The notes: a model not told the origin generated them from the sequence alone. Shown: positions 15,861-53,690, counted from the first letter of the stretch. The stretch is DNA of 55,133 nucleotides from an uncultured Bacilli bacterium (GCA_947626115.1 CANQQX010000004.1:1-55133), one strand, 5' to 3'. Made by a program: numbers and translations.

Positions 15861-16001
15861 ATTTCACAAAAATTTCATATTAATCAGTATTTTTCTTTTT
15901 ATAAATTATTTCAAATTTTTCTACTAATTTCCCAAAATATAATCTTGATAATGAAATGGTGGTATGATAAAATTAATAATAAGAGAGTAGGTGGATTTCG
16001 T

Positions 16002-16718
16002 ATGAAAAAAATTGTAACTTTACTACTTATGTTAATCTTAATAGTGGTACCTGTTAAAGCTGAAGAGTGTAGTTATACTGCTAAAGCTGATGCTATGAAA
16101 AAAGCTGCTAATGTTAAAGTTGATTATGAAGTTGTAGAAGATACAGAAAAATACGAAGATGGATCAACATCAACAGACGAATATTTTAAAATTTCTATTT
16201 TAAATGTAACAGAAGATTTATATGTAGAAGTTAGCAATGATGTAACAAGTGAAATTTTAACTTATAATTTTGCTGATGCTAAAGATGGTGTAATAACATT
16301 TGACTGGAGAGAAAATGAAGTAGTTACTAACTTTATTATAAAAGTATTTGCTTCTTATCAAACTCCATGTGGGGGAGAAGAATTAAAAACTATTAGAAAA
16401 CAAACTCCTAGATATAATGATTATTATAATAGAGCAATATGCTTAGAAGAAGATATGAAAGATTTTTATTTGTGTGAGAAATATACTAATTTAAAAGAAA
16501 TTGATGAAAGTATGTTTATTACTAAAATAGATAGTTTTATGGATGGAAAAATAGATGAAACGGGAAAGAGTACTGAAGAAGTAAAAAAAGAAGAAACTTT
16601 CCAAGATAAACTTGAAAAATATAAATATTTTATATTTGGTGGAATTATTATTTTAGTTTTAGGAACTACTACTGTTGTGGTTGTTAGAAAAAGAAACAGA
16701 GGGAAAAAGGTAAAATGA
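16002..16718 (+). CDS. Secreted/C-terminally anchored protein of unknown function, first gene of the Tad-like operon
   Basis: Signal peptide MKKIVTLLLMLILIVVPVKA; C-terminal TM plus basic tail RKRNRGKKVK; ATG at 16002 follows GGTGGA; ATGA overlap with the next gene. Confidence 0.55.
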   Translation: MKKIVTLLLMLILIVVPVKAEECSYTAKADAMKKAANVKVDYEVVEDTEKYEDGSTSTDEYFKISILNVTEDLYVEVSNDVTSEILTYNFADAKDGVITFDWRENEVVTNFIIKVFASYQTPCGGEELKTIRKQTPRYNDYYNRAICLEEDMKDFYLCEKYTNLKEIDESMFITKIDSFMDGKIDETGKSTEEVKKEETFQDKLEKYKYFIFGGIIILVLGTTTVVVVRKRNRGKKVK

Positions 16719-19700
16719 AAAAAGCGTTAAAATTATTAAGTTTGTTAATGTTGTCTTTACTTGTAAGCGTGATAAATGTAAAGGCTGCGATAGTTATAAA
16801 ACAAGAAGGAGATAAATATGGAGCAGCGCAAGGAACGGCGTATTATAATGGACGTAAAGTTGTCGGTGCCTTTGGTGGTTTAGATATTTCTAGGTATTAT
16901 TTTTATGTTGATAATGCAAAAAAAGATGCCTACTGTCATAACCCTGGAGTAACAGATTATCTTGATAGTGATTTACCAAATGGTGGTACTTTAACTTTTA
17001 AAAATATTAGAAATTTATCCGATCCAATTCAAAATGATCGTAAAGCAAGTATATATGATGCTGGGCTAATGTCTATAATTAATAATAATTGTGGTTCGGG
17101 TGATAAATGTTATGTAGCGAAATTTATAGCAATTAATATGTATGAGCATTTATTTCCAATGATGAATTCAAATGGTAATAACAATAATTCAGAAATTAAA
17201 TATATAAAATACTTAATTAATTCTATGTATGATGATATAAGTGGAGATTTAAAAACTTTAGCTAATGCTATGGGATCTTATAACGTTATAAGGGGAAAAT
17301 TTACAAGCGGAGCTAGCAATTGTACAGGAAATAAATGTGATGATTTAGGAGCTGTTTCTGACGCCAAAACAATGGTTAAATCAGCACTAAAAAAAGCTAT
17401 AGCGTATGCTGAAGATGGTGAAGCAACAACAACTATAACAAATGGTGTGCAAAAAAGAACAACAACAACTGATGATAATAATATAATTACATATACTAAT
17501 TCTGTAGTTCATACTGTAACAATTACTAAATTTATGGGAACTGATGGTAAGAAAGAAGGATCAGTTAAATTAAATTATAAATGTAATAGTAATTGTGCTA
17601 ATGTAAATACAAAATTTTATATTGAAGTAAATGGAGAATTTCAACCAATAAATGATTTATCAACAATAAATTTTGTCGATTATACTGATAATGGTACAGG
17701 TACCGTTAAAATTAAAATAGAATTTTCAAGTACTTCTGATAAATATAAAAATTGTGAACCAATAAAATATACATTAGGTGTAACATATACACATTATTCT
17801 GTTTCTCAATCAGGTTATTCTACTGGTAAATGTACAAATTCAGCAAAATGTCAAGGATTTTATGTAGCAAATGCTAGTAGTGATACAACAACAAAAACAT
17901 CATCTATTGATAACTCTATTTCTCTTTGCACCACTCCTGGAGATGTATCATCTTGTGCTGCAAAAATTGATAATGTTGAATGTATTGCATGTAAGAAGAA
18001 TGAACATGATATAGATATTAAAGAAGGATATCAATATGCTAATGATAATACTTGTGATACTTCTGGAGCAAAAGAAAATATAAAGGAATGCGTAGCTAAT
18101 AATAGTAGTGATGCGGCAGGACATACTTTAAGAAATAGTGAATTAAGTAATGATGTTACTGCTATAATGGATAAATATGGTTATAATGGTAAAGGTGTAT
18201 TTTGTAAAGAAGATTATCATTTACATTTACCAGGTTCTATTCTAGTTGATACAGGTAGGTATTTTACATTAAAATCATCTATAACTGGTACAGAATCTTG
18301 TTATACAAATGAACTGGGAAGTAATGGCACTGTTAAGTCTGCAATAATTAATGAAGGAAAAAGAACAGTAGATGTATATAATCAAAAATCCATGTATGAA
18401 GCAATTGGCAATTGTATTGGTGATCCAAATTGTTACAATGTTGATAAGGACATGAGAGTTTGTAAAACAATAAAACAAGTTAAAGCTGGTAATTTATTAC
18501 GTAAGAAACCTAATGATGATGATGCAGAGGCGCTTAATGATTATGCGAATGCGTGGGCGAAAACTTGTAAAGGTCAATGGTTAAATATAGATGGGATGAG
18601 TTTTGCTAAATGTATCACTGACCAAGGCGTAGAAGCTATTACAAAATTGCCTGATTCATATAAAGTTCGACGTATTGTTACAAAACGATTTTATCAAATA
18701 AGAGCAAAAGTAACATTAAATGCTGAATATACTGTTTATGAAGGGGGCACTACATGTTCGACTGGCAGTCGTAGATTAGATACGACTGAAGAAGAGAATG
18801 GACTTTTTTATGGTGATTGGTTGCCTTGTCAGTATTATAATGGCAAAGAAAATGAATTTGAGTGTGGTGAGAGTGCCGAATGTTCTGCAACTGTTGAAGA
18901 TTTAACAGCTGAGCAAAAAAGTGCAGCTTTGGCTCAAATTGGTAGAACTGCTAAAGTAACAGGCGGTGGCTCAACAGGTGGTGGTACAGCTGGTAAAGAT
19001 TCTGCAAGTTCTGAATATGTAGTTTCTAACGGATATGGTTTAAAAGCAAAGCTAGGTACTGGGGGAATATATTATTTGATGCAAGATTGGAACAAAGCTA
19101 CTGGATATAATGGAACTAGTGCATCTCAAGATTCAGCATATAACAATAGTTTTGATGATACACCATTTAATGAAGGTTGGAGAATGAATTATAATTTTGC
19201 ACCAGATATGTATTTTTGGTATCAAGAAGAATACATGAATAAAGCTAGAACTGATCAAATGGATATGTATGATAAAAGTTTAAGTGGGGTATCGTCTCAA
19301 TATTGTAGTGGTAGTGTAAGTGATGATTACTCACTATGTAATGGTAGCCAAAATAACTGGACAGATCATCCAACAGTAGATCGTGGCTCAGTTTGTGCAT
19401 GTACATCTGATGGATGCAGTAATTACAATTATGTCCTATCAAATGTTAAATATGTTAAACAATCCCAAAAAGCAGAAGCTAAATTTATTACACCAACACA
19501 ATTTTATACATTGCATCCATCTGGAAGTATTGTAGTAGGTAACCAAGGTCAAAGTGATAAAATTGAAAATAGTAAAGAACTTACTAATGGACTTCCTGTA
19601 GGTCTTGGATCAAATGGTACAAGAAGATATGTAATGTGGTTTGAAAATTTAGGTGAATATTTTGATAAAGATACTTTAGGACGTGTTTGGGGTGCGAATG

Positions 19701-20728
19701 ATAGTGTAGTATCTAAGTTACTTCAAGATAGAACTAAATGTAATGTTCCTGATTCTGCTTTAGTAGATGAAGATAATACTCAAGGTACTATTCATGATGA
19801 AGGTGTCTATGCTTGTAAGTATAGTACGGATTGTCCTGATGTTTGTAAAAAACCTGAAGAATCTAGTGATGGTAAATACCATTGTAAAGATGGTGAAGTA
19901 TGTGAAGAAGAAGATTACAATCGTGAATGTTGTCCAACTTGTCCACCTTCCGTATCATATATTTGTGCCGTAACAACTGATGAACAAGGAAATTTATTAT
20001 ATTATGATAAGAGTGGTACTGAAACTGATCCAGACACTTATAAATCCCAATGTTGTCCAAATGGTGAATGTCCAGTAACTTGCTCATTCTGCTTATATGA
20101 CGGTAATAAATTAAATGTTCAATATCGTCCAATTACTTCTGAAGATTTAAATCCAAATGATCGTGATCTTGGTAGAAACTGGAGATGGGAAGAGCCAATT
20201 AATACAGGCTTAGAATTAAAAGCTTATGTTACTACTGAAGAAATTCAAGAAAAAGGCGATGGCATTTATGATATACCAGATGATCACTTTACTAATCCAA
20301 ATTCTGATTATGAATATGCTGTTAAAATTACAATGAATGGTAGAATGATAAGTAAAATAAAGAGCCTTAATAAAAAAGATGAATACAAAGATGGCTATGC
20401 TGGTAATACATTAAAATGTTATGATTTAAAAGATGGCGATAAGGTATATGAAAATGTCTTCTGCTATAGTAACTTTATTGATGAATTATTAGAAGATGAT
20501 AAAGTTAAAGATAATATTCAATTTACAAGAGTAAGACCAAAAGAAAACGAGAGAAATAATACCGAAAATAATGAAAGATATTTCACTAGTTGGATTAAAG
20601 CCGATAGTAGTAAATGGCAAATTCAAACACAAAAAGGATTTGCATACTATAAAGAACATTATGGTATGGAAATAGATTATGATAATGATACAACAATAGA
20701 TTATCATCTTGGACCATCATGGAAATAG
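16715..20728 (+). CDS. 1337-aa secreted Cys-rich protein (candidate pilus-associated adhesin)
   Basis: Signal peptide; about 49 Cys by my count, including CCPTCP and CCPNGECPVTC clusters; Gly-rich linker; no recognisable catalytic motif. Confidence 0.6.
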   Translation: MKKALKLLSLLMLSLLVSVINVKAAIVIKQEGDKYGAAQGTAYYNGRKVVGAFGGLDISRYYFYVDNAKKDAYCHNPGVTDYLDSDLPNGGTLTFKNIRNLSDPIQNDRKASIYDAGLMSIINNNCGSGDKCYVAKFIAINMYEHLFPMMNSNGNNNNSEIKYIKYLINSMYDDISGDLKTLANAMGSYNVIRGKFTSGASNCTGNKCDDLGAVSDAKTMVKSALKKAIAYAEDGEATTTITNGVQKRTTTTDDNNIITYTNSVVHTVTITKFMGTDGKKEGSVKLNYKCNSNCANVNTKFYIEVNGEFQPINDLSTINFVDYTDNGTGTVKIKIEFSSTSDKYKNCEPIKYTLGVTYTHYSVSQSGYSTGKCTNSAKCQGFYVANASSDTTTKTSSIDNSISLCTTPGDVSSCAAKIDNVECIACKKNEHDIDIKEGYQYANDNTCDTSGAKENIKECVANNSSDAAGHTLRNSELSNDVTAIMDKYGYNGKGVFCKEDYHLHLPGSILVDTGRYFTLKSSITGTESCYTNELGSNGTVKSAIINEGKRTVDVYNQKSMYEAIGNCIGDPNCYNVDKDMRVCKTIKQVKAGNLLRKKPNDDDAEALNDYANAWAKTCKGQWLNIDGMSFAKCITDQGVEAITKLPDSYKVRRIVTKRFYQIRAKVTLNAEYTVYEGGTTCSTGSRRLDTTEEENGLFYGDWLPCQYYNGKENEFECGESAECSATVEDLTAEQKSAALAQIGRTAKVTGGGSTGGGTAGKDSASSEYVVSNGYGLKAKLGTGGIYYLMQDWNKATGYNGTSASQDSAYNNSFDDTPFNEGWRMNYNFAPDMYFWYQEEYMNKARTDQMDMYDKSLSGVSSQYCSGSVSDDYSLCNGSQNNWTDHPTVDRGSVCACTSDGCSNYNYVLSNVKYVKQSQKAEAKFITPTQFYTLHPSGSIVVGNQGQSDKIENSKELTNGLPVGLGSNGTRRYVMWFENLGEYFDKDTLGRVWGANDSVVSKLLQDRTKCNVPDSALVDEDNTQGTIHDEGVYACKYSTDCPDVCKKPEESSDGKYHCKDGEVCEEEDYNRECCPTCPPSVSYICAVTTDEQGNLLYYDKSGTETDPDTYKSQCCPNGECPVTCSFCLYDGNKLNVQYRPITSEDLNPNDRDLGRNWRWEEPINTGLELKAYVTTEEIQEKGDGIYDIPDDHFTNPNSDYEYAVKITMNGRMISKIKSLNKKDEYKDGYAGNTLKCYDLKDGDKVYENVFCYSNFIDELLEDDKVKDNIQFTRVRPKENERNNTENNERYFTSWIKADSSKWQIQTQKGFAYYKEHYGMEIDYDNDTTIDYHLGPSWK

Positions 20729-20744: not shown

Positions 20745-21161
20745 ATGAAGGAAGCTTATTGGGGTTATTGGTTAGTACTTTTAGGAGTATTTGTAGTAGT
20801 AATATTGCTTTTAATTCAAAATGTTACTTCTAATAATACAGAAAATAGTTATACTGTAAGACAAATAAATGAGGCAGCTTTAGTAGATGCAATAGATTAT
20901 GCTTATTATAGAGAATATGGTGAACTTAAAATAAATAAAGAAAAATTTATTGAAAGTTTTGCTAGAAGATTTGCTGAAACTGCTTCACTTTCTAGTGAAT
21001 ATCAAATTATAATTACTGGTGTATATGAAACACCACCAAAAGTAAGTGTTCAAATAACTAGTAAAACAAATACTTACTTTATTGCTAATGAACAAACTTC
21101 TTCAGAAGATTTTGATATGGAAAGTAGAGTAGAAGCAATACTAGAACAAAGTAATAAATAG
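20745..21161 (+). CDS. Small membrane protein with a pilin-like MKEA N-terminus
   Basis: MKEAYWGYWLVLLGVFVVVILLL: same MKEA start followed by a hydrophobic helix as in the downstream pilin candidates. Confidence 0.45.
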   Translation: MKEAYWGYWLVLLGVFVVVILLLIQNVTSNNTENSYTVRQINEAALVDAIDYAYYREYGELKINKEKFIESFARRFAETASLSSEYQIIITGVYETPPKVSVQITSKTNTYFIANEQTSSEDFDMESRVEAILEQSNK

Positions 21162-21172: not shown

Positions 21173-21937
21173 ATGGGAAATTTATTAGCTAATTTAAAAA
21201 GATTTATCTCAAATAAAAATACAGTTACTATTTTAGCTGTTTTAGCAGGAATTATAATATTATGGTATTTTTATAATTATCGGGTTAATCAAGCAATTAC
21301 AACAGTTAGAATTCCTTATGCACTTGCTAAGATTGATACAAAAGATAAAGTAGAAACTGATAATGTTGGTTTTAGAGAAATTACTAGAAGTTCTTTAAGA
21401 GATAATGATTTAGTAGAAAACATAGCTGAACTAGATGGTAAATATATTTGTGAAGGAACAAGTATTCCCCAAAATGGTTTCTTTCATAAATCACAAATAT
21501 GTGATAAAAGTGAAATTTCTAATTCAGTTAATGAGGATTTACCAAAGGGCTATACTTTGGCTAGTATAAAAGTTACAAATGAAACAACTTATGCCAATTC
21601 CATAGCACCAGGTGATTATATTGATTTATATATGTATGCTAAAGATACTAATGGTGCTATATATGGTAAATTAATTGAAAGTATTAAAGTACTTGAAGTA
21701 AGAGATAGTAGTGGACGTAATGTTTTCTGGGATTCATCTGCTGGTGATTCAGCTACACTATTATTTGGTGTACCAGATGAATATGCTAACTTATTAGATT
21801 TAGCTAATAGAATAAGTGGTATTGATATTCGTCCAAGACTTAGAGGTGCAGATTATTCTAAAAACCCTGGTGAAACAGAGTTAAAGAGTGAAGAATTACA
21901 AGCATTTATCTATAGTCAAGTAACAATTGTAGAATAA
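21173..21937 (+). CDS. CpaB/RcpC-like Flp pilus assembly protein
   Basis: N-terminal TM; SAF-like segment; GDYIDLYMY...IKVLEVRD...ATLLFGVPDEYANLLDLA pattern typical of CpaB. Confidence 0.6.
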   Translation: MGNLLANLKRFISNKNTVTILAVLAGIIILWYFYNYRVNQAITTVRIPYALAKIDTKDKVETDNVGFREITRSSLRDNDLVENIAELDGKYICEGTSIPQNGFFHKSQICDKSEISNSVNEDLPKGYTLASIKVTNETTYANSIAPGDYIDLYMYAKDTNGAIYGKLIESIKVLEVRDSSGRNVFWDSSAGDSATLLFGVPDEYANLLDLANRISGIDIRPRLRGADYSKNPGETELKSEELQAFIYSQVTIVE

Positions 21938-25023: not shown

Positions 25024-25120
25024 AAAAGTGAGTGCAAAAAGGTGTAAGTTTTGTTCAAAAGTGGGTGCAAAAAGGTGTAAATTTTACTCAAAAGTGGGTG
25101 CAAAAAGGTGTAAAAAGAGC
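25024..25120 (+). repeat. Three tandem 33-bp direct repeats
   Basis: AAAAGTG(A/G)GTGCAAAAAGGTGTAA(G/A)TTTT(G/A)(T/C)TC at 25024, 25057 and 25090 (third copy partial), directly upstream of a TATAAT box and the AAA ATPase start. Confidence 0.85.
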
Positions 25121-25151
25121 TATAATTATAATGAATTGGGGAGAAAATAAA

Positions 25152-26477
25152 ATGAAAAGAAAAATATATAATGATTTACTAGCTTGGAAAAATAGTTCAA
25201 ATTTTAAACCATTAATTGTACTTGGAGCAAGACAATGTGGTAAAACTTATATAATAGATGAATTCTGCCAAAAAGAATATAAAAAGTATAAAAAAATTAA
25301 CTTATTATATGATGTAGATATTGTTAAATTATATGCTTCAAATGATTCATCAGAGAAAAAATATAATGATTTAAAGATATTATTAGATTTTGATTTTGAC
25401 CAAAAAGATAGTATTCTATTTATTGATGAAATTCAAGAAAGTGAAGAATTAATTTCGGAATTAAAATTTTTTAATGAAAAGCATAGTAATGTTAGAATTA
25501 TATGTGCAGGATCATTATTAGGAGTAAAATTAGCTAGACTAAATAAACCTTTTCCAGTAGGAAAGATAACTAGATTATATATGTATCCATTGGATTTTGA
25601 AGAATTTTTAATTGCCCTTAATCAACAAAAACTTTTAGATAAGATTAAAGAGAGTTTTAGAAAAAATGAATCAATGGGAATACTTCATAATAAAGCAATA
25701 GATTATTATAGAATGTATTTATTATCAGGAGGTATGCCAGAAAGCATTAAGTCTTTAATAGAAAATATTAATGATTATTATAATTATGATTTATCTAAAT
25801 TAAATAATATTATTGAAGATTATAAAAATGATATGAATAATCATGTTAATAATTCATCTGAAACATTAAAAATTCGGAATTTATATAATTCTTTATCTTC
25901 ACAATTACAAAATGCTTCTAAAAAATTTCAATATTCGGTAATTGATACAAATGCAAAAAAAAGGGAATATATTTTGCCATTAAATTGGCTTATTGAAAGT
26001 AATATGGTTCAAATATGTAAATGTATTAAATTGCCAGAAAAGCCTTTATTAGGATTTGTGGATAATGATGTGTTTAAATTATATTATTCTGATGTAGGAA
26101 TTTTTAATAGATTAGTAAATAATGATATTAAAACTATTATGTTAGATGATATGAAAATATATAAAGGAATTATCACTGAAAATTATGTTGCTAATCAATT
26201 AAAAGCTCTTGGAATAGATTTGCTATATTGGAGAGGAAATAGAGATGCTGAAATAGATTTCTTAATTTCAACAAATGATGGTATAATTCCTATTGAAGTA
26301 AAAGCAGATGAAAATACCCAATCTAAAAGTTTAAAAATTTACAATGATTTATATCATCCTAAATATATGATTAGAATTAGTTTAAAAGATTTTGGCTTTA
26401 AAAATAATATTAAATCTATTCCTTTATATGCTATATTTTGTATAAAAGAATTAATATTAGATAAAGATAGTCAGTAG
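25152..26477 (+). CDS. AAA_14 / DUF4143-family ATP-binding protein
   Basis: Walker A GARQCGKT; Walker B ILFIDEIQ; C-terminal DUF4143-like nuclease-fold signature (DAEIDFLI...IPIEVK). ATG at 25152 follows GGGGAG; the 40 codons upstream are the tandem repeats. Confidence 0.8.
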   Translation: MKRKIYNDLLAWKNSSNFKPLIVLGARQCGKTYIIDEFCQKEYKKYKKINLLYDVDIVKLYASNDSSEKKYNDLKILLDFDFDQKDSILFIDEIQESEELISELKFFNEKHSNVRIICAGSLLGVKLARLNKPFPVGKITRLYMYPLDFEEFLIALNQQKLLDKIKESFRKNESMGILHNKAIDYYRMYLLSGGMPESIKSLIENINDYYNYDLSKLNNIIEDYKNDMNNHVNNSSETLKIRNLYNSLSSQLQNASKKFQYSVIDTNAKKREYILPLNWLIESNMVQICKCIKLPEKPLLGFVDNDVFKLYYSDVGIFNRLVNNDIKTIMLDDMKIYKGIITENYVANQLKALGIDLLYWRGNRDAEIDFLISTNDGIIPIEVKADENTQSKSLKIYNDLYHPKYMIRISLKDFGFKNNIKSIPLYAIFCIKELILDKDSQ

Positions 26478-26591: not shown

Positions 26592-26876
26592 ATGAAAGAA
26601 GCAACAGGTGAATTAAATATGACAGTTGTAACAGTTGTAGCAATCGCAGCCTTAGTAGCGTTCTTTTATTTAGTTATATGGCCAGTACTTCAAAATGGTA
26701 TGACATTAAACTCTGCATGTAATGCTTCTAATGGTGGACAACTTACTTATACGACAACAGTTGATGGTGAAGCAGTTGAGTGTGGCGGTGGACAATGTAC
26801 TTACAAAGGTTCAACAAGACAATGTGAAACTAGCGCAAATACTACAACAGGCGGAACTGGCGGTACTACAGGTTAA
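26592..26876 (+). CDS. Pilin candidate 1 (Flp/Tad-like major pilin)
   Basis: MKEATGELNMTVVTVVAIAALVAFFYL leader plus hydrophobic helix; 4 Cys; Thr/Gly-rich tail; strong AAAGGAGG SD. Confidence 0.6.
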   Translation: MKEATGELNMTVVTVVAIAALVAFFYLVIWPVLQNGMTLNSACNASNGGQLTYTTTVDGEAVECGGGQCTYKGSTRQCETSANTTTGGTGGTTG

Positions 26877-41391: not shown

Positions 41392-43629
41392 ATGTTAATA
41401 TTAAATTGGATAGAAACAAGTGTTATAAGCATTGGTATTTGGATTACTAGTGGTATATATTATGTTGCTGCAAATACATTTAATATTTTTCTAATATTAT
41501 CGTCTGGAGATTTAATTGATTCAAGTGCTTATGAACTTATAATAAGAAATTTTTATATTATTTTGGGAATAGTAATGCTGTTCTTGATTTCGTTTGCTCT
41601 TTTAAGGGGAATGGTAAATCCAGATGATCAAAAGCAAGGAACAACAACGATAAAAAAAATAGTTCTCAATTTTGTAACTTCTGTAGTTATTTTAGGATTG
41701 TTACCAATTATTTTCTCATTTGCTTATGATGTTCAAGATTCTATAATTAGAGATTATAATGTTATCGGTAGATTCTTTGGCTATGGTAGTATTTACAATA
41801 ATAACAATAAAGATAATCCTGATGATTATGAAGATAGAATTAGACAAGGAGCTTATGGAATAGTAAATGGTGTATGGACAGCATTCTTTAATATAAAAAC
41901 GCAATATTGTGATGATTTTATTGCCGAAGAATTTAGTGACCAAATAAATGCAAGTTCTGCTACCAAACTAGAAACTTGTCAAAATAAAATTACTGCCTTA
42001 GGATATGATGATGTAGTGGGAACAAGTTTGATAAGTGATGATACAAAAGTAGCAAATGGTTATTCTTTTACAAGATTTTCAGAACAAGTTGAAAAAAATG
42101 GCGATTTTGGTTTATATTTAGCTTTTTCTGAAAATGTAGCTGAAGATCAAGTTCAATTCATGTTTATTTTAAGTTTTATTGGGGGAATACTTTTAATATA
42201 TGTAGCAATATCATTCTGTTTTGATATGGCATTGCGAATGATAAAATTAATTTTCTATCAATTAATTGCCCCTATTCCAATAATGTTAAGGGTTATACCA
42301 GATGGTAAATTAAGCGGAATGTACAAGCAATGGCTTAAAGTTACTGTTACTTGTTATTTAGAAGTATATTTAAGAATATTTATTATGTACTTTACAATAT
42401 ATTTGTGTGTTTTTGTAAGAAAAAGCGATTTTATGACAAAATATGTTTATAATTTTGGTGGCTTAACAGGATTATTTACAAATGCTTTTGTCTTAATGGC
42501 TCTTGTTATGTTTATGAGAAGAGCACCAAAACTTATATCTGAAGTAACCGGAATTGATTCTGGTAATATGAAACTTGGAATAAGAGACAAACTTGCCGAA
42601 GGTGGAGGTTTAACTGCTGCATCAATAATTGGCGGTGGTTTTACAGCCGGAGCAAGAAACTTAGTTAATTCTTTTGAACAAGATGAAAATGGAAGATGGC
42701 ATAGAAAAGAGGGGGCTCATACTGTTAGATCAACAATTGCTGGTGTAGTATCTGGTGGAGCTAGATCTGGAAGAGCTGGTTGGAATGCTAAAAGTTATGG
42801 TGATGTAAGAAAAGCGGCATCAAGTGGAGCAGCCGGAGCAATTAGAGCTCGTGAAAATAGAAAAGCATATAGAGAACAACATCCAAATGAAAATATTTTT
42901 GTGGCTAGAGCAAATGATGTAGTTCAAGGCATTAATGATTGGTTTCAAGGCGGCTTTGAGGCTGAAGAAGCTAAAATAAAATCTTACAATGATTTATTAG
43001 CTGTTCAAGATAGAGCCAAAGCTGCAACTGAAAAAGTCATGTCTAAATTTTCCACAAATTCTAAAATTGTAGGAATGCCACAAGAATTTAAAGGTGTTAG
43101 CGAAGATATGGCTAATAGGTTTAAAAATCTATTTGCTGGTCAAGATTTAGCTACAATGGAAAATACTATCTCATCTTTAAAAAATCGTGTAATTAATAGA
43201 GATGATTATGCAACCGATGAAGAGTATGAACAAGCAGTTCGTAATCATAACGCAATGGTTTCAGCTTATGATTCGATGTATCAACAAGTTAGAAAGGAAA
43301 CAATAAAAAAAGTTCAAAGTATGGTTTTTGCAAATGGTGTTGATGAAGACGGTACAGTAAAACCAGCATATGAAATAGCGGGATTAAAGGATTCTGATAT
43401 ATCAGCAATTAGAGCAGAGTTAACAAATGCTGAAAATATGCTTAATACAATGGGACGTGCTAGTGAAATCAATTTAAGAGAACAATATGATCCTATTCAT
43501 GAAAAAGGTGCTGGTTATTCATTTGATAAGGCTGCATCTGATGTTGAACAAGCTAGAAATAATTTACATGCCGATGTTGAAAGAAAGAAAGCTGCAAGAG
43601 CTGCTCGTAGAGGAAATAATAATAATTAA
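41392..43629 (+). CDS. VirB6-like polytopic T4SS channel protein with a long C-terminal soluble extension
   Basis: At least 6 predicted TMs in the first 400 aa; Gly/Ala-rich then coiled-coil-like tail; lies between the pilin-like and VirB3/VirB4 genes. ATG at 41392 follows GGAGAG. Confidence 0.5.
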   Translation: MLILNWIETSVISIGIWITSGIYYVAANTFNIFLILSSGDLIDSSAYELIIRNFYIILGIVMLFLISFALLRGMVNPDDQKQGTTTIKKIVLNFVTSVVILGLLPIIFSFAYDVQDSIIRDYNVIGRFFGYGSIYNNNNKDNPDDYEDRIRQGAYGIVNGVWTAFFNIKTQYCDDFIAEEFSDQINASSATKLETCQNKITALGYDDVVGTSLISDDTKVANGYSFTRFSEQVEKNGDFGLYLAFSENVAEDQVQFMFILSFIGGILLIYVAISFCFDMALRMIKLIFYQLIAPIPIMLRVIPDGKLSGMYKQWLKVTVTCYLEVYLRIFIMYFTIYLCVFVRKSDFMTKYVYNFGGLTGLFTNAFVLMALVMFMRRAPKLISEVTGIDSGNMKLGIRDKLAEGGGLTAASIIGGGFTAGARNLVNSFEQDENGRWHRKEGAHTVRSTIAGVVSGGARSGRAGWNAKSYGDVRKAASSGAAGAIRARENRKAYREQHPNENIFVARANDVVQGINDWFQGGFEAEEAKIKSYNDLLAVQDRAKAATEKVMSKFSTNSKIVGMPQEFKGVSEDMANRFKNLFAGQDLATMENTISSLKNRVINRDDYATDEEYEQAVRNHNAMVSAYDSMYQQVRKETIKKVQSMVFANGVDEDGTVKPAYEIAGLKDSDISAIRAELTNAENMLNTMGRASEINLREQYDPIHEKGAGYSFDKAASDVEQARNNLHADVERKKAARAARRGNNNN

Positions 43630-43651: not shown

Positions 43652-43972
43652 GTGAAAAATTATTTAATACCAGCAAATACCAAAAAATCACAATTGCTAT
43701 TAGGATTTTTTACACCACTAGATTTAATTATATTTGCGGTTGGATGTGTATGGACATTAATAATGTTATTAATTATAAAAAGTACTAATATTTTTGCTTT
43801 AATATTATTAATGCTGCCAGCATTAGTAGGAACGTTTTTAGTAATGCCTGTACCACATTATCATAATGTATTACAATTATTAACAAATATATTTAATTTC
43901 TATACAAATAGAAGAAGATATTATTGGAAAGGATGGAGTATGTATGAAGAATTCAACTCAAACAGTAAATAA
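43652..43972 (+). CDS. VirB3-like / PrgI-type small two-TM T4SS protein
   Basis: 106 aa; LLLGFFTPLDLIIFAVGCVW plus a second TM; immediately precedes VirB4, as in Gram-positive T4SS loci. Confidence 0.55.
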   Translation: MKNYLIPANTKKSQLLLGFFTPLDLIIFAVGCVWTLIMLLIIKSTNIFALILLMLPALVGTFLVMPVPHYHNVLQLLTNIFNFYTNRRRYYWKGWSMYEEFNSNSK

Positions 43973-44507
43973 TCCAAAATTTACGAGTACTTGGTTACCA
44001 ATTAGACAAATTATGAATGGGATGATTCAACTTGATGATGGAACTTTTGTTACGGGAGTAAAAATTTCTCCTAAAAATATATTTATTATGGGTGCTCAAG
44101 CGCAAGATAATATGGTATATAATTTAAGAAATTTTTACAATACTATTGATTATGAATTTTGGCTTATTATTGCAGATCGTCCTGTTGATATCAACTTGTA
44201 TCTGGCTGAGTTACAAAAATTATATAATAATACTTCTAATAATGAAGCTAGAAAATTAATTTTACAAGATATCAATAAAGCTAATCAATTTATGAGTATA
44301 GAATATAATGTTGTTGATACAGAGTATTATTTAATATTTCAAGAGAAAAAATTGGAAATATTACAAAAAAAACTTCATAATATGATAAGTGGTCTTGCTA
44401 ACAGTGGTTTACAAGCTAGTCAAACAAGTAATGATGATTTACGAATGATTTTAGATAATCTTCTTAATGGCGGAGATGCTATTAATTTTGGGACGGTGAT
44501 GAGTTAA
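43944..44507 (+). CDS. VirB4-family ATPase, N-terminal domain as a separate ORF
   Basis: WLPIRQIMNGMIQLDDGTFVTGVKISPKNIF resembles the start of Gram-positive VirB4 proteins (Tn916 Orf16/CD1110 type). 187 aa + 595 aa = 782 aa, the usual single-protein length. Confidence 0.6.
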   Translation: MKNSTQTVNNPKFTSTWLPIRQIMNGMIQLDDGTFVTGVKISPKNIFIMGAQAQDNMVYNLRNFYNTIDYEFWLIIADRPVDINLYLAELQKLYNNTSNNEARKLILQDINKANQFMSIEYNVVDTEYYLIFQEKKLEILQKKLHNMISGLANSGLQASQTSNDDLRMILDNLLNGGDAINFGTVMS

Positions 44508-46347: not shown

Positions 46348-46656
46348 GTGGTGATTGTTATGAAAAGGGATTTTTATAGAGTGTTAGAAGATTGGCAAAA
46401 AAATGATATAGAAATACCTCTTATGATAGTCGGAGCAAGACAAGTTGGTAAAACATATATAATAGATGAGTTTTGTAAAAATAATTTTGATGATTATATT
46501 TATATAAATTTAAAAGATAATAAAGAAGTGTGTAATATATTTAAAGAAGAAGAAGATTCAAAATGTGGAATAGAGATAGAAAGAGATATAAATGCTAGTA
46601 TAAATATAATGTATGAAGGAATAATAAGTTACTATAAAGGAATTATTCAAATTTAA
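46348..46656 (+). pseudogene. Chimeric remnant: about the first 70 codons of an AAA_14/DUF4143 ATPase fused to the last 30 or so codons of an IS605-family TnpB
   Basis: MKRDFYRVLEDWQ...MIVGARQVGKTYIIDEFC parallels 25152-26477. From about 46560 it switches to KCGIEIERDINASINI, the TnpB C-terminal zinc-finger/RuvC-III signature. Confidence 0.75.
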
Positions 46657-46853: not shown

Positions 46854-49514
46854 ATGAATTTTGATGAAAATAATGAAAATGATAATAGCCAAAATTCAAA
46901 GGTATCACCGGAAGAAAATAATAGTTTAGCTGTAGTAGATAATCAAAGTGCAGCAGAAAATGAAAATAACTCTGATTACAGACCAAAAAGTAATAAATTT
47001 ATTAGAAGAAATGTTATCAATAGTAAAGCTAGTAATCCTTATGAAAAAATAAAGAATATAATTAATAGAAATAGTAAAAAAGTAGCTGATGAAAATATTG
47101 ATGAAAATGCTGAAACAGGTAATGTAGATGATACTAATAAACAATTGGCTTCAGCTGCCAAAAAGCAAATGGTTTCTCAAGCAAAGAAACAAGTTTCTTC
47201 TGCAACTGTCAAAGAAGTTACGGCAGCGGGTATTAAAGCAGTTGTTGGTTTTGTTGCATCAAACCCAATTGTTTTAGCAATTATATTAGGTTTATTATTA
47301 TTGATTATCATTTTTATGTTTTTCTTTGCCTTTGATTATGGTACTAATGAAGTTGAAGGCTATTTTGATATTACATGTGATTTTAATATTACAGCGGTTT
47401 CTTGTAGTAATGGTAGAACTGTTGATATAAAAGATTATGTTATTGGTAAAGTATATTCTGAAACGCAAAAAAGAAAATTTTCAGAAGAACAAATAAAAGC
47501 TCTCATGATAATAGTTAAAACTAATGCCTTAGCAATTGGTAATTATAATAGTGAAGGAGATAAAATTATATCTTTAAATGATTGTAATATTGTAAATGAA
47601 GATAATGTAGAAGATAAAAGTACTTATGAAGATTTACTAGATTATTATGATGATATTAGAAATTATTTATTTGTTTCAGTATCTTACACTGATGATATTA
47701 CTGATTTGGGTAGCGCAGATATTCTTGAATATAATGATGATATATTGGATAGATTAAGTAATATAATTAGAAGTGATTATAAGGAAATTTTAGAAGAATT
47801 ATATCCTAATACCGAAGGTGGTGATTCTGAGACAGTTACAACAGCCAATAATAACCCTTCTATTTTTGTTGGTGATTCTAGAACTGTGGGAATGAAAAAT
47901 TCTGTTAGTGAATTAAACGATAATAATACTGTTGCAGAAGGATCAAAAGGATATGATTGGTTTGTTAATACAGCAATTGATAGCATTAATAGTAAAGTAA
48001 GTGGAAATAATGCTTATAACATTATTAGTTGGATGGGTGTCAATAACTTAGCATCTAATGGTTCAACTTGGGCTCAAACTTATTTTGATAAATATAAAGA
48101 TCTTGCTCAAACATCATGGAAACAACATACAATTTACGTTGTTAAAGTAGGTCCAGTAGTAGATGAAAAAACCTATTATGTTGATAATAATGAAATAGAT
48201 GCTTTTAATTCCAAAATAAAAGAATTAATTACTAATGCCAATATTAGTAATTTGAAATATTTAGATATTAATTATTCTATTAGCAGTTATGATGCTGAAG
48301 GGTTACATTATGGTACAAGTGATTATCAAAAAATATATGATGATATAAAGAATGAAGTAAGTAGTACCAAAACAATTAGTAAAAATAAGGCATTATATAA
48401 CAATGCAGATTATTGTTCTTATTATAATTATAAGCAAGGTTGTGAAGCGGGATGGTGGTATCCAATAGGTGAAAAAGGCAACTTTGAAAAAGGTGCTATA
48501 TTACGTGGAGATCCAGAATTAGTAGATACCGGTCCTGATAATTTTGGATGGCGTAATGATCCAATTAATGGTGGTAGAGCTTATCATAGTGCTTCCGATT
48601 TGTGGGCAAATCTGGGAATGAATGTAATTGCAACTAGAAGTGGTACAGTTGTTGTTGCGGTAGATGGTCATAGAGATAATGCTGGTTTAAATGATGGTGA
48701 AGGTTGCGGTAATTATATTAAAATAGATCATGGTGATGGATTTACTTCTTTATATTGCCATTTAAAACAAGGTTCTGTTTCAAAATATGTTACAGTTGGT
48801 ATGAGTGTATCGCAAGGGCAAATTATTGCTTTATCAGGTAATTCAGGTAGAACAACCGGACCGCATTTACACTTTGGAATTAGTGAAGGTGGTACTGTTC
48901 GAAATCCTTTTGATTTTATTAGCACAGAAATGCCACGTCCAAAAACTAATAATTGTAAAAATTATGAAGCGGATACTGCTGGAGTTTGTCATGCTTTGAA
49001 AGATTTGGGATTTAGTGATAATGCAGTTGCAGGTTTAATGGCTAATATTATTAGTGAAGGCGGTTTTGATCCTACTACAGTGGTTCCTAATGATAATGGC
49101 GGGCCAAGTTATGGTATGATTGGTTGGCATGATGCGTCTGATTGTAGTACTGTTGACGTATGTGAAGTATCAACTAAATTGCCTGGATTAACTTGCAATG
49201 GTAGTAATTTAAAATGTTTCTGTAGACAAAATGGTATGGAATGGGATACAGTGGCTTGTCAAACAGCATTTTTAAAAAAATATATTGATGATCATGCTAA
49301 TACACCAGGTTTTGATGCTGCTAAAGAAATATATGGTGACTATAGTGCTTATGATATAGCGGTTCAATTCAGTTTTAAGCTTGAAAGATGTAGCCAATGT
49401 TTTACATATTCAGGTAAACACATAGTACCAGGAGTACCAGGGCCAGCGTGCTATATTCGTGGAAGTAGAGCTAATGAGTTTTTGCCTTTTGTTAAAAATG
49501 GTTGTAAAGATTAG
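46854..49514 (+). CDS. Multidomain T4SS-associated cell-wall hydrolase (VirB1 functional analogue)
   Basis: Disordered N-terminus plus TM; SpoIID-like segment (EEQIKALMIIVKTNALA); SGNH-like block (FVGDSRTVG ... EGLHYG); M23 peptidase (YHSASD, GPHLHFG); C-terminal Cys-rich lysozyme-like module (GLMANIISEGGFDP). Confidence 0.75.
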   Translation: MNFDENNENDNSQNSKVSPEENNSLAVVDNQSAAENENNSDYRPKSNKFIRRNVINSKASNPYEKIKNIINRNSKKVADENIDENAETGNVDDTNKQLASAAKKQMVSQAKKQVSSATVKEVTAAGIKAVVGFVASNPIVLAIILGLLLLIIIFMFFFAFDYGTNEVEGYFDITCDFNITAVSCSNGRTVDIKDYVIGKVYSETQKRKFSEEQIKALMIIVKTNALAIGNYNSEGDKIISLNDCNIVNEDNVEDKSTYEDLLDYYDDIRNYLFVSVSYTDDITDLGSADILEYNDDILDRLSNIIRSDYKEILEELYPNTEGGDSETVTTANNNPSIFVGDSRTVGMKNSVSELNDNNTVAEGSKGYDWFVNTAIDSINSKVSGNNAYNIISWMGVNNLASNGSTWAQTYFDKYKDLAQTSWKQHTIYVVKVGPVVDEKTYYVDNNEIDAFNSKIKELITNANISNLKYLDINYSISSYDAEGLHYGTSDYQKIYDDIKNEVSSTKTISKNKALYNNADYCSYYNYKQGCEAGWWYPIGEKGNFEKGAILRGDPELVDTGPDNFGWRNDPINGGRAYHSASDLWANLGMNVIATRSGTVVVAVDGHRDNAGLNDGEGCGNYIKIDHGDGFTSLYCHLKQGSVSKYVTVGMSVSQGQIIALSGNSGRTTGPHLHFGISEGGTVRNPFDFISTEMPRPKTNNCKNYEADTAGVCHALKDLGFSDNAVAGLMANIISEGGFDPTTVVPNDNGGPSYGMIGWHDASDCSTVDVCEVSTKLPGLTCNGSNLKCFCRQNGMEWDTVACQTAFLKKYIDDHANTPGFDAAKEIYGDYSAYDIAVQFSFKLERCSQCFTYSGKHIVPGVPGPACYIRGSRANEFLPFVKNGCKD

Positions 49515-49526: not shown

Positions 49527-50438
49527 ATGACAAAAAATAATCAAAAATTTATACTAATTTTTATTGTTATACTATTGGTTCTTACTTCAGTTATGGCAGT
49601 ATTTATTAATATGAATATAAAAGATAATAATAACGATGATCAAAATAATAATATTCCATCTAATGAACCAGTAATAAACAAAGAAATATCTAGATTGAAT
49701 AATGACGAAGAATATTTTGCTGTGCAAAAAGCAATAAATGATGTATTTGGGCTTATAAATAACACGAATGAATTATTAAATTATTTTGATGAAGATTTTA
49801 TAAATGAAAATAATTTAAATGAAAGTAATATTTTAAATTATTTAAAAGTAACTCAAAAAAATAACTTAGATTTTATAGTCGAAGAAATATATTATAATGA
49901 TAATAGTAACATAACTTATTATTTTACTAAATGCTATTCTATGGAATATGAAGTAGGAGAAGATAAAGTTAGTTATTCTCCTAACAAATATTATTTATTA
50001 ATTGTAGATATGAATAATCATTTTGTTTTAAAACCATTAGATAATGTTGATAATTTAGAAACATATGCTAAATCTTATGATATAAAAGAAGTTGCTATAA
50101 ATAATAATACTGATTTTAAAAAACAAGAGACATCAGATAAAAATAGAATTATAAATTACATAAATAATTTTGTAAATTTACTTTATTTAGATACTAGTAA
50201 AGCATATGATATGTTAGATGATGAAACTAAAAAGCAATATACTAATTTAGATAGTTTTATAAATGATATTGATAATATTTACTCTAAATTATTTACTAAT
50301 TTTAAAGCTTTAAATAAGGAAGAAAATGCTGATAATATTATTTATAAAGCACAAAATAAAGATATGGAAACAATATCTATAACAGAATATTATCCTAATG
50401 ATTATAAAATTGGCTTTAAATTTTTAGAGGGAGTATAG
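49527..50438 (+). CDS. Bitopic membrane protein, candidate VirB8/TcpC-like T4SS component
   Basis: N-terminal TM plus about 250-aa ectodomain; tandem paralogue of the next ORF; position between hydrolase and coupling protein. The assignment is architectural only. Confidence 0.35.
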   Translation: MTKNNQKFILIFIVILLVLTSVMAVFINMNIKDNNNDDQNNNIPSNEPVINKEISRLNNDEEYFAVQKAINDVFGLINNTNELLNYFDEDFINENNLNESNILNYLKVTQKNNLDFIVEEIYYNDNSNITYYFTKCYSMEYEVGEDKVSYSPNKYYLLIVDMNNHFVLKPLDNVDNLETYAKSYDIKEVAINNNTDFKKQETSDKNRIINYINNFVNLLYLDTSKAYDMLDDETKKQYTNLDSFINDIDNIYSKLFTNFKALNKEENADNIIYKAQNKDMETISITEYYPNDYKIGFKFLEGV

Positions 50439-50439
50439 A

Positions 50440-51360
50440 ATGAAAAAAGATAATCAAAAAATATTATTATTCATAATAATTGGTATATTATTGTTAGTAT
50501 CTATAATGGCGTTTATTATGGGAACTAAATCAAATAAATCAAATAATGATACAACAGAAAATCCAAAACAAGAATTACCATTAACTCCTGTGTTAAATAC
50601 AGAAATAGTAAGATTAGATGATACTAATACAATTTTTGCTATTCAAAAAACTATTAGTAATTTTTATACTGAAATGTTTAATAATAAAGCAAATGCTATA
50701 TTATTACTGGACAAAGATTTTGTATTTAAATATACAATAAATGAAAATAATATAAATAATTATGTTAATAGTACTAATGAGAATGTTAATTTTATAGCTA
50801 CGGAAGTTTATTATAATCCAAATAGTAATATGACTTATTATTTTATTAAAGGCTATACCATTGATGGAACTAATACTGGAGATAATTTAAAATATACTAA
50901 TAATTTATATTATATTTTAAAAGTAGATATGGAAAATAATTATAATATTACTCCTTTAAAAGATATTGAAAATTTAGAAACTTATATTAAAAATTATTAT
51001 TTCAGTAAAATATATATTGATAATACAACTAAATTTGAAATTAAAGAAGTAGATGCTGTTGATAAATTAATTGCTTATATTACTAATTTTAAAAGTTTAA
51101 TGTACATAAATAGTAATGAAGCTTTTAATATATTAAATGATCCAACTAAAAGTAAATATGCTAATTTAAAAGCTTTTATGGATGATAGAGAAAATATTAA
51201 TGAAAAATTAAGCTTAAAATTTAATAAAATTGATGTTAAAGAAGAAGGTAATATATTAATTTATAATATTATAAATAATAATAGAAATAGTATAACTATT
51301 ACTGAATTTTATCCTAATGAATATAAGATAGATTTTAATTTTTTAGAGATAACTCAATAA
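50440..51360 (+). CDS. Bitopic membrane protein, paralogue of 49527-50438
   Basis: Collinear similarity (e.g. ITEYYPNDYKIGFKFLE vs ITEFYPNEYKIDFNFLE; EIYYNDNSNITYYFTK vs EVYYNPNSNMTYYFIK). Confidence 0.35.
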   Translation: MKKDNQKILLFIIIGILLLVSIMAFIMGTKSNKSNNDTTENPKQELPLTPVLNTEIVRLDDTNTIFAIQKTISNFYTEMFNNKANAILLLDKDFVFKYTINENNINNYVNSTNENVNFIATEVYYNPNSNMTYYFIKGYTIDGTNTGDNLKYTNNLYYILKVDMENNYNITPLKDIENLETYIKNYYFSKIYIDNTTKFEIKEVDAVDKLIAYITNFKSLMYINSNEAFNILNDPTKSKYANLKAFMDDRENINEKLSLKFNKIDVKEEGNILIYNIINNNRNSITITEFYPNEYKIDFNFLEITQ

Positions 51361-53641: not shown

Positions 53642-53652
53642 ATAGTAAAATT

Positions 53653-53676
53653 ATCTCTAGAAATAGAGATTTTTTT
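53653..53676 (+). terminator. TCTCTA-GAAA-TAGAGA hairpin plus T run, copy C
   Basis: Identical to copies at 24921 and 29148; 12 nt after the VirD4 stop. Confidence 0.65.
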
Positions 53677-53690
53677 AATTTTTAGCACTT

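Follow-up and report, generated by a model that had tools for sequence, protein, structure and literature searches.

Introduction

Why would a bacterial chromosome keep the genes for a Tad-related filament and the genes for a type IV secretion system (T4SS) side by side, and do the two gene sets form one machine? This question is raised by a contig of 55,133 bp from an uncultured Bacilli bacterium (GCA_947626115.1, CANQQX010000004.1:1-55133), which was analysed in its entirety and is referred to as the window; its own flanks end with the contig. A preliminary description, made from the sequence alone, had interpreted the region as an island of about 38 kb, in which a complete Tad/Flp-like pilus operon is coupled to a Gram-positive-type T4SS in an unusual apparatus. 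Here, we argue that the locus is rather probably a vertically inherited and chromosomally fixed descendant of the mating-pair-formation operons of plasmids of the pLS20/pAW63 class, working for its host as one contact-and-translocation apparatus. The loci and contigs used for comparison are labelled with L-numbers (L005, L085 etc.).

Gene content of the locus

Families were assigned to the open reading frames (ORFs) of the window by searching Pfam and NCBIfam, and family profiles were compared with hhalign. Every substantial ORF between positions 15945 and 53641 lies on the + strand, and the stretch from 16.0 to 53.6 kb comprises a Tad-related set and a monoderm T4SS set (Table 1). The locus is real and intact, and the presence of both sets on one strand, as proposed in the preliminary description, was confirmed by Pfam, NCBIfam and hhalign. 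Pfam and NCBIfam gave nothing above noise for the platform proteins, the pilin candidates, the TadZ-like protein, the two proteins at the VirB8 position, the small surface protein and the giant protein.

Among proteins of solved structure, the ATPase of the filament module is most similar to CpaF (66 bits), followed by FlaI (64 bits) and VirB11 (52 bits), and it shares 30-33% identity with proteins of Gram-positive plasmids that are annotated as 'CpaF/VirB11 family'. It is thus an enzyme of the CpaF/TadA type, a subfamily label that is provisional because the NCBIfam equivalog cutoffs for TadA/VirB11 were not reached. The CpaB/RcpC component of a Tad/type IVc pilus was identified by Pfam and by hhalign, with which the CpaB-like family aligned to the SAF/CpaB proteins of Tad loci (98.8%, 1e-16); the match to TIGR03177 (4e-8) remained under the cutoff. 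For the two platform proteins, annotated T2SSF proteins of the canonical monoderm Tad loci of Alkaliphilus (L093) and of a Brevibacterium plasmid (L094) served as references. The family of the 301-aa TadB-like protein aligned to them with 96-97% (E 1.6e-10, about 215 columns in register), and that of the 262-aa TadC-like protein, pooled with its plasmid counterparts, with 90% (1.6e-6), while the controls, a reversed sequence and VirB6, did not exceed 18%. Thus, two T2SSF-like platform proteins are detected by hhalign and not by Pfam alone, whose T2SSF family was matched by only one of 32 TadB-like relatives. The AlphaFold2 (AF2) model of the TadB-like protein is all-helical (predicted local distance difference test (pLDDT) 89). 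Since a library of 1.84 billion proteins yielded only 256 distant relatives with E <=1e-3, the family is narrow. The AF2 model of the 326-aa TadZ/CpaE-like candidate (pLDDT 71) consists of an N-terminal alpha/beta domain, a disordered linker and a ParA/MinD-fold domain with a degenerate P-loop. With the C-terminal domain, Foldseek retrieved ParA, ParF, MinD, FleN and HypB (E 2e-4 to 2e-3), and no match was obtained at the sequence level with Pfam, NCBIfam or hhalign, plasmid ParA-like proteins included (background). The predicted fold is consistent with TadZ/CpaE, which is not proof, and the protein is 60-78% conserved among relatives.

DUF5411 and the four pilin-like proteins (20745-28133) share the N-terminal motif M[KR]E[AS]xxG, followed by one hydrophobic helix. 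The leader is kept in L085, L090, L091 and L092 and is absent from the plasmid counterparts; it is unlike the class III prepilin signal, G/XXXXEY. The small surface protein is encoded by the first gene of the conserved block, for which the mechanically called ORF begins at a TTG at 15945. Its ortholog lies 5' of the giant in L085, L090, L091 and L092 and is fast-evolving (17-35% identity). Orthologs of the giant (1067-1373 aa) occupy the same position in relatives, and neither Pfam, NCBIfam nor PDB sequences contained a match to it.

Of the components expected of a monoderm T4SS, the T4SS set comprises VirB4, VirD4, VirB6/VirB3 and a hydrolase. The assignments of VirB4, VirD4 and the hydrolase are secure; VirD4, for instance, scored 293.9 bits against the NCBIfam model conju_CD1115 (cutoff 250). 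The labels VirB6 and VirB3 are suggested by sub-threshold family matches and by hhalign values of 74-78%; for VirB6, the NCBIfam models MMCAP2_0566, pLS20_p028 and Mbov_0396 were all matched under their cutoffs. The VirB3-like protein, the 187-aa protein, which would be equivalent to the VirB4 N-terminal domain, and VirB4 (43652-46294) align to consecutive parts of one 894-aa VirB4 model of a Mycoplasma integrative and conjugative element (ICE; Mbov_0397). By this alignment, the fused VirB3-VirB4 protein of Mollicutes ICEs appears here as three separate genes. Among the 24 members of the VirB2-like family, T4SS_pilin is the most frequent match (8 members, best 3.5e-5), and the domain alignment shows two transmembrane helices (TMs) joined by a loop and conserved cysteines; relatives have arrays of one to three such genes. 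A cysteine precedes the first helix of the hairpin (38343-41387), an invariant one follows the second, and many orthologs of the 279-aa type end with G-T-C-G-I-G. Such a pattern could point to a disulfide bond or to a modification of the terminus. The 303- and 306-aa proteins fit the position and the topology of VirB8, and they matched nothing in Pfam, among PDB sequences or among plasmid VirB8-like proteins (hhalign at background). In other species, their place is taken by unrelated-looking bitopic proteins (clusters c21 and c22).

The gene lists of the preliminary description were thus largely borne out. CpaB, the ATPase, TadB and TadC stand in the Tad list, which is interrupted by an AAA_14/DUF4143 gene (25032-26477) and whose pilin candidates have no detectable Flp/TadE homology. 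In the T4SS list, three VirB2-like proteins, VirB6, VirB3, a split VirB4, the hydrolase and VirD4 hold, and the designation of the products of 49527 and 50440 as VirB8-like is unsupported.

Table 1. Features of the locus in the order of their coordinates in the window
Feature	Coordinates	Strand	Basis of assignment
Small surface protein, ~240-257 aa, signal peptide and C-terminal anchor	16002..16718	+	Hydropathy: N- and C-terminal TM
Secreted Cys-rich giant, 1337 aa, 49 Cys	16715..20728	+	Position
DUF5411 protein, bitopic, MKEAYWG N-terminus	20745..21161	+	Pfam DUF5411 1.5e-49
CpaB/RcpC-like protein	21173..21937	+	Pfam RcpC 31.7 bits (cutoff 28.8)
CpaF/TadA/VirB11-family secretion ATPase, 365 aa	21968..23065	+	Pfam T2SSE 1e-29
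Putative TadB-type platform protein, T2SSF-like, polytopic, 301 aa	23086..23991	+	Profile-profile comparison
Putative TadC-type platform protein, 262 aa	23991..24779	+	Profile-profile comparison
AAA_14/DUF4143 ATPase	25032..26477	+	Pfam
Two small pilin-like proteins, 94 and 82 aa, MKEATGE leader, one TM, Cys-rich head	26592..27136	+	Sequence, TM scan
Two larger pilin-like proteins, 171 and 152 aa, MREAIG leader	27150..28133	+	Sequence, TM scan
TadZ/CpaE-like candidate, 326 aa	28153..29133	+	AF2 and Foldseek
AbiEi-like/AbiEii toxin-antitoxin pair	29209..30698	+	Pfam AbiEii 1.6e-29; not in relatives
M26 (IgA1-protease/Zmp-like) surface metallopeptidase, 2471 aa	30769..38184	+	Pfam Peptidase_M26_N, Peptidase_M26_C
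Three VirB2-like proteins (127, 536 and 279 aa), two-helix hairpin domain	38343..41387	+	Weak Pfam T4SS_pilin (38343, 38821)
VirB6-like polytopic channel protein, 752 aa, six TM	41371..43629	+	NCBIfam, sub-cutoff
VirB3-like protein, 106 aa	43652-43972	+	Weak Pfam TcpE/PrgI
187-aa protein, putative equivalent of the VirB4 N-terminal domain	43944..44507	+	Alignment to Mycoplasma ICE VirB4 model
VirB4 ATPase, 595 aa	44507..46294	+	Pfam P-loop_TraG, AAA_10, CagE_TrbE_VirB
AAA_14 remnant fused to TnpB-like fragment, insertion scar	46348..46656	+	Pfam
Cell-wall hydrolase, bitopic, M23 and lysozyme-like	46854..49514	+	Peptidase_M23 5e-22, Phage_lysozyme2 1e-13; TM 139-157
Two paralogous bitopic proteins, 303 and 306 aa, one N-terminal TM each	49527..51360	+	VirB8 position
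VirD4 coupling protein, 740 aa	51419..53641	+	Pfam T4SS-DNA_transf 3e-53, TraG-D_C

Relationship to plasmid-encoded conjugation operons

The best plasmid matches of the ATPase are 'CpaF/VirB11 family' proteins encoded on plasmids of Priestia, Paenibacillus, Enterococcus, Listeria, Bacillus and Paraclostridium, and VirB4 is best matched on the pAW63-type plasmids of B. thuringiensis, to which pCT72 belongs. The first part of the plasmid operons encodes a large adhesin, a bitopic protein of about 125 aa, the ATPase, two polytopic proteins (about 270 and 240 aa) and small bitopic proteins. It is followed by a second part with the genes for VirD4, a VirB6 of the pLS20_p028 type, a VirB3 of the DUF5592 family, a protein of about 190 aa, VirB4 and a hydrolase, and a relaxase gene is located further on. 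This module order is shared by a Paraclostridium plasmid, pZB18, a pLS20-like plasmid, pCT72, pLGUG1 and a Priestia plasmid. A gene for a SAF/CpaB protein and a ParA-like gene are added in pCT72 and in the Priestia plasmid; for the latter, the NCBI annotation names a 'DUF5411' protein, at the same position as in the window, and a 'type II secretion system F family protein'. In the literature, only one incidental mention of DUF5411 was found. Each of the compared plasmids carries or is typed with a relaxase, which is annotated in the fetched stretches of pZB18 and the pLS20-like plasmid, and the Paraclostridium plasmid and pLGUG1 are typed MOBP.

The window can be linked to these operons gene by gene. 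With hhalign, DUF5411 aligned to proteins like that of pLS20 gene 36 (94%), the TadB-like family to the gene-38-like (86%) and the TadC-like family to the gene-39-like proteins (97%, 7e-11), and a weak link connects the larger pilin-like proteins with the gene-40-like proteins (65%, 6e-5). In the T4SS part, VirB6 aligned to the pLS20_p028 family over a short stretch (78%), VirB3 (74%) and the 187-aa protein (92%) aligned to their plasmid counterparts, and VirB4 is 29% identical over its full length to the pAW63-type protein (78-98% in relatives). Moreover, the L092 ortholog of the 187-aa protein matches the Pfam family TraC-like. The giant sits where the plasmid operons have a big adhesin with thioester, SpaA or Ig-like domains, and its hhalign comparison with the plasmid adhesins gave background values, as did that of the VirB2-like proteins with the VirB2-like proteins of plasmids. 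A megablast search of plasmids with both halves of the region retrieved no match, and tblastn of the TadB-like protein, which is too divergent, gave one marginal match. Given the gene-by-gene profile links and the shared order, the coupling of a Tad-related set to a T4SS is a family trait of this plasmid class, and the locus is, as far as profiles and gene order can tell, homologous as a unit to the pLS20/pAW63-class mating-pair-formation operon. Thus, what had been regarded as unusual in the preliminary description is the standard layout of the pLS20-, pHT-beta- and pAW63-like conjugation operons. On Cutibacterium acnes plasmids, too, a tad locus had earlier been described beside VirB4 and TcpC genes.

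Inheritance at a fixed chromosomal site

In a scan of one genome per GTDB species, VirD4 had 408 relatives, the best 80 of which are about 61-96% identical. Nearly all of them are encoded in metagenome-assembled genomes (MAGs) that are labelled Bacilli, Tenericutes, 'Mycoplasma sp. CAG:776' or Candidatus Caccenecus and that were obtained from the guts of rabbits, goats, sheep, chickens and humans. We take these bins to belong to the GTDB order RF39, and no paper was found in the literature on a T4SS in RF39-type bacteria. An exact-protein look-up of the PDDEXK_2 and VirD4 proteins of the window returned no record. A Clostridium plasmid or ICE, which was the first guess at a GC content of 26%, was dropped as the VirD4 relatives belong to uncultured gut Bacilli.

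Directly after VirD4, 74 of the 80 loci carry the same rhodanese gene, beyond which a series of housekeeping-looking genes is syntenic. VirD4 and the small rhodanese (window 51419-54956) form the most conserved gene pair of the region, which is kept even where no other T4SS genes lie within 10 kb. The T4SS order, with a VirB2-like array, VirB6, VirB3, the 187-aa protein, VirB4, the hydrolase, a bitopic protein and VirD4, was found within 10 kb in 29 loci. For the left flank, the contexts of the ATPase homologs were used, which are very numerous and 80-90% identical. The left part of L085/L087 contains uvrB and genes for a 346-aa protein, a metallophosphoesterase, a CPBP protease, the small surface protein and the giant, which are followed by DUF5411, CpaB, the ATPase, TadB, TadC, four pilin-like proteins, the TadZ-like protein, VirB2-like proteins, VirB6 and VirB3, without any cargo. 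L092 shows the same cargo-free layout from proS through VirB4, L091 has the same Tad-like block, and the left edge of L039 bears a TadZ fragment followed by VirB2-like genes. In several species, the left flank is uvrB or proS. Furthermore, the divergence of VirD4 tracks that of its housekeeping neighbours, as exemplified by L028 (proS 74%, uvrB 88%, VirD4 76%). In many species, the locus is thus passed on at one and the same position in the chromosome.

The ratios of nonsynonymous to synonymous substitutions (dN/dS), which are rough because dS is near saturation, are 0.09-0.12 for the ATPase, 0.10-0.28 for TadB, TadC and TadZ (TadZ 0.15-0.28), 0.16-0.71 for the pilin-like proteins and 0.6-0.86 for the giant. 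Identities among relatives are about 24-68% for the hydrolase, the VirB2-like proteins, VirB6 and the bitopic proteins. A conserved motor is under purifying selection, and the exposed parts are variable and fast-evolving.

Could the locus nevertheless be an ICE, active or recently immobilised, that has its relaxase, its origin of transfer (oriT) and its integrase outside the contig or elsewhere and that still transfers itself or chromosomal DNA? Such an element would be in keeping with the close plasmid homologs, all of which are conjugation systems with MobP-type relaxases, with the retention of a well-conserved coupling protein, with the two or three copies present in some MAG bins and with the fact that the window stops 1.5 kb past VirD4. 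However, the genes that follow VirD4 in the 74 relatives are the rhodanese and housekeeping genes rather than DNA-processing genes, and the left side is uvrB or proS. The GC content is about 26% across the window, without a step at the proposed island borders and the same in the locus as in its flanks. A relaxase, a Rep protein and tyrosine, serine or DDE recombinases were not matched by Pfam in the 40 main ORFs, a scan that left out the truncated YhcG copy (15176-15829). When MobP2 and MobP3 relaxases and two plasmid tyrosine recombinases were used as tblastn queries, nothing significant (E below 1) was obtained in the window, and the 82 related chromosomal loci contained no match to MobP2, MobP3 or a tyrosine recombinase. 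The sole integrase candidate is part of a prophage-like insertion behind VirD4 in L005. An ICE is therefore improbable.

The claim of the preliminary description that the region lacks a relaxase, a recombinase and a replicon accordingly agrees with the Pfam and tblastn searches, whereas its view of an island does not accord with the GC content, the rhodanese side kept in 74 of 80 loci and the uvrB or proS genes on the left in several species. It had considered the two modules to be linked and had allowed that comparative genomics might reveal independently inherited neighbours. Physical and evolutionary linkage is evident from the contiguous, cargo-free L085/L087 and L092 and from the same order on Gram-positive plasmids. 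It had also allowed for a relaxase or integrase together with the architecture of a described family; the architecture does match a described plasmid family, and neither enzyme was found.

In L020, L025, L028 and L053, the genes for the hydrolase, a bitopic protein and VirD4 come within 3-5 kb after uvrB, and the Tad-like genes and VirB4 are missing in between. Some contigs of this type share a MAG bin with a full-length locus. This short version might stem from a deletion in a second copy, from strain variation or from faulty assembly.

Proposed function of the locus

We infer that the locus acts as one apparatus, which would have lost, or would never have had, relaxase, oriT, replication and integration functions. 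The CpaF-family ATPase, TadB/TadC, CpaB, the ParA-fold organiser and the four pilin-like proteins may build a short filament or pseudopilus through the wall, which would present or position the variable, Cys-rich surface proteins for contact with a partner cell. The filament module could reach or hold this cell and perhaps breach the wall, with the fast-evolving Cys-rich proteins as the contact surface. The hydrolase would open the wall, VirB3, VirB4, VirB6 and the VirB2-like proteins would form the channel, and VirD4 would feed the substrate into it. As neither the window nor any of the related loci that were examined carries a relaxase, we regard self-transfer as excluded, and the substrate that is moved would be something other than the element itself. 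Because no relaxase is nearby, a protein or another cargo that is not piloted by a relaxase is ranked slightly ahead of DNA.

Alternatively, the locus may consist of two independent neighbouring machines, a Tad-type adhesive pilus for colonisation of gut or mucus and a separate T4SS. Tad pili mediate adhesion on their own in many bacteria, the Tad-like block of L090 is not followed by a T4SS, many species have VirD4 apart from the remaining T4SS genes, and the functional link was left open for the C. acnes plasmids (PMC5696575). However, the same adjacency and order occur in several chromosomal species, the adjacency is kept on Bacillus, Enterococcus, Listeria, Priestia and Paraclostridium plasmids, and even in L090 a VirB2-like gene stays with the Tad-like block. 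No terminators were predicted on the + strand between 15 and 35 kb, which is a weak argument; the counts of the promoter and terminator scans equal the chance expectation in this AT-rich DNA. Two separate machines are unlikely, if still the most plausible of the alternatives that we considered.

The locus might also specify an apparatus for DNA uptake or exchange, whose filament would take hold of DNA or of a donor cell and whose T4SS would bring DNA in without a relaxase, comparable to the archaeal Ced/Ups systems and to Tad-dependent transformation in Micrococcus. Indeed, import requires no relaxase, a Tad locus is required for transformation of Micrococcus luteus (cited in PMC5696575), and Ced-mediated DNA import in the Sulfolobales depends on type IV pili (PMC12102498). 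VirD4 is a good match to the DNA-binding-domain family TrwB_AAD_bind (6e-21). However, apart from VirD4, nothing in the locus is specific to DNA, and to our knowledge the T4SS-based uptake system ComB of H. pylori does without a VirD4 coupling protein. DNA uptake is about as improbable as an ICE but has to be reckoned with.

Several observations speak against a single Tad-related apparatus and have to be set against this evidence. The apparatus is known here from its genes. The T2SSF assignment of both platform proteins comes from profile comparison alone; Foldseek found no fold in the PDB that matches the TadB-like model, and the family profile matched no PDB sequence. The four pilin candidates gave background values against Flp and TadE with hhalign, i.e. 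no detectable homology, and they are devoid of the canonical class III signal. Likewise, no match to Peptidase_A24, the family of the prepilin peptidase TadV/CpaA, was present in the scanned ORFs of the window, and the gene may be located elsewhere in the genome. The module is thus a Tad-related type-IV-filament set with non-canonical filament subunits and departs from a textbook Tad locus. In L090, unrelated genes come after the Tad-like block and one VirB2-like gene, and in about one third of the species the VirD4-rhodanese pair is split from the other T4SS genes by housekeeping genes, so physical linkage is not obligatory. The split pattern looks like long chromosomal residence rather than mobility. 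Finally, the dN/dS values are only approximate, as mentioned above, and a relaxase could be encoded elsewhere in the genomes, for which draft contigs are available.

It is conceivable, though doubtful and proposed tentatively, that a whole clade of uncultured, reduced-genome gut Bacilli keeps a hybrid organelle at a fixed site, in which a Tad-related filament and a T4SS with a VirB2 array act as a unit that engages cells and moves macromolecules. If so, the organelle would parallel the essential T4SS of Patescibacteria, and the pLS20, pHT-beta and pAW63 plasmids would, by homology, build a mating pilus of the type IV filament type. If the locus does encode one machine, these bacteria would represent a second independent reduced-genome lineage, after Patescibacteria, that has domesticated a monoderm T4SS, and a contact-dependent lifestyle would be indicated for common gut bacteria of animals and humans.

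Insertions, cargo and neighbouring genes

In relatives, the T4SS genes directly follow the Tad-like genes, and thus the AAA_14, AbiE and M26 genes of the window are local insertions. The same holds for the PDDEXK_2 gene downstream of VirD4 and for the YhcG genes. The AAA_14/DUF4143 gene interrupts the Tad-like set, has no copy at that site in L085, L090, L091 and L092 and is a lineage-specific insertion, not a machine part. Directly 5' of the likely true start of the gene, 25024-25114 consists of 2.8 copies of a 33-bp unit (93% matches); the mechanically called start at 25032 runs through this repeat. The 102-aa scar ORF between VirB4 and the hydrolase combines an AAA_14 N-terminus with a Cas12f/TnpB-like zinc-finger fragment, and an intact AAA_14 gene (434 aa) occupies the same gap in L005 (3289-4590). 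Hence, the family was inserted twice in the locus, and one copy has decayed.

The gene for the M26 peptidase, a protein with a dockerin-like segment, is missing between the modules in L085 and L092. A homolog with 54% identity is present in the equivalent locus of L027 (4-2505), 5' of the hydrolase and VirD4, which suggests that a host-facing M26 protease is recurrently associated with the locus. In L005 (12372-21401), a prophage-like block stands directly after VirD4 in place of the rhodanese side; judged by N-terminal sequences, it encodes integrase-like, XRE repressor, Cro-like and DNA methyltransferase-like proteins and many small ORFs.

The first 15.8 kb of the window contain ordinary chromosomal genes, among them proS, uvrB and genes for an ArsR regulator, a P-type ATPase, an SDR protein, an ABC/FtsX transporter, a metallophosphoesterase, a CAAX/CPBP protease and two nucleases of the YhcG type, a truncated one among them. 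No tRNA genes are present in the window. The two adjacent YhcG/DUF1016 genes (14210-15829, - strand), the second without the C-terminal PD-(D/E)XK domain, separate the CPBP protease gene from the gene with which the locus begins; L085 lacks them at this place. The Rce1-like/CPBP intramembrane protease (13042-13734, - strand) is the left neighbour of the locus, as it is in two relatives; copies were located in L085 (3570-4265), L090 (4071-4694) and L002 (13650-14096). It is missing in L092 and also found 5' of the adhesin in the transfer region of pZB18. Because no A24 prepilin peptidase is present, the protease is a candidate for processing the M[KR]E[AS]xxG leaders, which is speculative.

Comparison with known systems

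The operon of pLS20 (genes 34-54), pZB18 from Enterococcus faecium and pLGUG1 from Listeria resembles the locus in its order from the adhesin through the hydrolase. In contrast to the window, these plasmids carry a MobP2 relaxase and genes for replication and regulation, they have neither CpaB nor the ParA-like protein, and VirD4 precedes VirB6, whereas it comes last in the window; the ATPases are only 21-33% identical. A fuller Tad-like set is shared with the pAW63/pXO2-like plasmid pCT72 and the plasmid of Priestia koreensis, which encode DUF5411 or a small bitopic protein, SAF/CpaB, a ParA-like ATPase, CpaF/VirB11, a T2SSF protein, a second membrane protein and small pilin-like proteins, with a VirD4/VirB4 T4SS on the same replicon. 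Unlike in the window, these genes are plasmid-borne and accompanied by MobP3 or replication-relaxation proteins, and in pCT72 the T4SS precedes the Tad-like genes instead of following them.

In the paper on the pLS20 family, a VirB11 homolog was named and pilus components were said not to be encoded, and the papers on pAW63 name only VirB11. According to a review from 2025, Gram-positive T4SSs universally lack VirB11 and, Patescibacteria apart, VirB2, and Gram-positive conjugation systems are described in reviews as apparently pilus-less, with which the mating pilus considered above would contrast. The 'VirB11' of pLS20-type plasmids sits in a Tad-related set together with a T2SSF platform and pilin-like proteins, to which CpaB and a ParA-like protein are added in some cases. 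The main value of the locus is thus comparative, as it exposes a Tad-related filament module within a well-studied class of Gram-positive conjugation systems. Since pLS20 is tractable and mates in liquid, donor reach and wall crossing in Gram-positive bacteria are directly testable.

With canonical Tad/type IVc systems, such as Cpa of Caulobacter, Tad of Aggregatibacter and the loci of Alkaliphilus (L093) and Brevibacterium (L094), the window has in common the CpaF-family ATPase, the two T2SSF-like proteins, CpaB and a protein with a predicted ParA fold. What sets it apart is the lack of an Flp-type pilin, of TadE/TadG homology and of an A24 peptidase in the locus, as well as its leader, which is M[KR]E[AS]xxG instead of G/XXXXEY. 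Linear plasmids of C. acnes have a tad locus beside VirB4-, TcpC- and FtsK-like genes (PMC5696575). Unlike the locus described here, they are actinobacterial, encode the canonical Flp/TadE set and are neither chromosomal nor lineage-wide. On the Brevibacterium plasmid pAP13 (L094 1-13436), a canonical Tad locus (SAF, CpaF, two T2SSF, TadE/TadG) is located a few kb from a divergent block annotated as a conjugal transfer protein and an ATP-binding protein. This looks like another Tad-conjugation neighbourhood of a monoderm, similar to the C. acnes plasmids.

Among published systems, the closest to the locus is the T4SS encoded in the chromosomes of Patescibacteria, which is likewise of the monoderm type, chromosomally fixed in an uncultured lineage with reduced genomes, mostly devoid of a relaxase and equipped with arrays of divergent VirB2-like proteins and which has been read as co-opted for a host function (PMC12102498). 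In contrast to the window, Patescibacteria belong to another phylum, encode their type IV pili separately and have no contiguous Tad-like module described (PMC12102498). The resemblance between the two systems would thus be one of architecture only.

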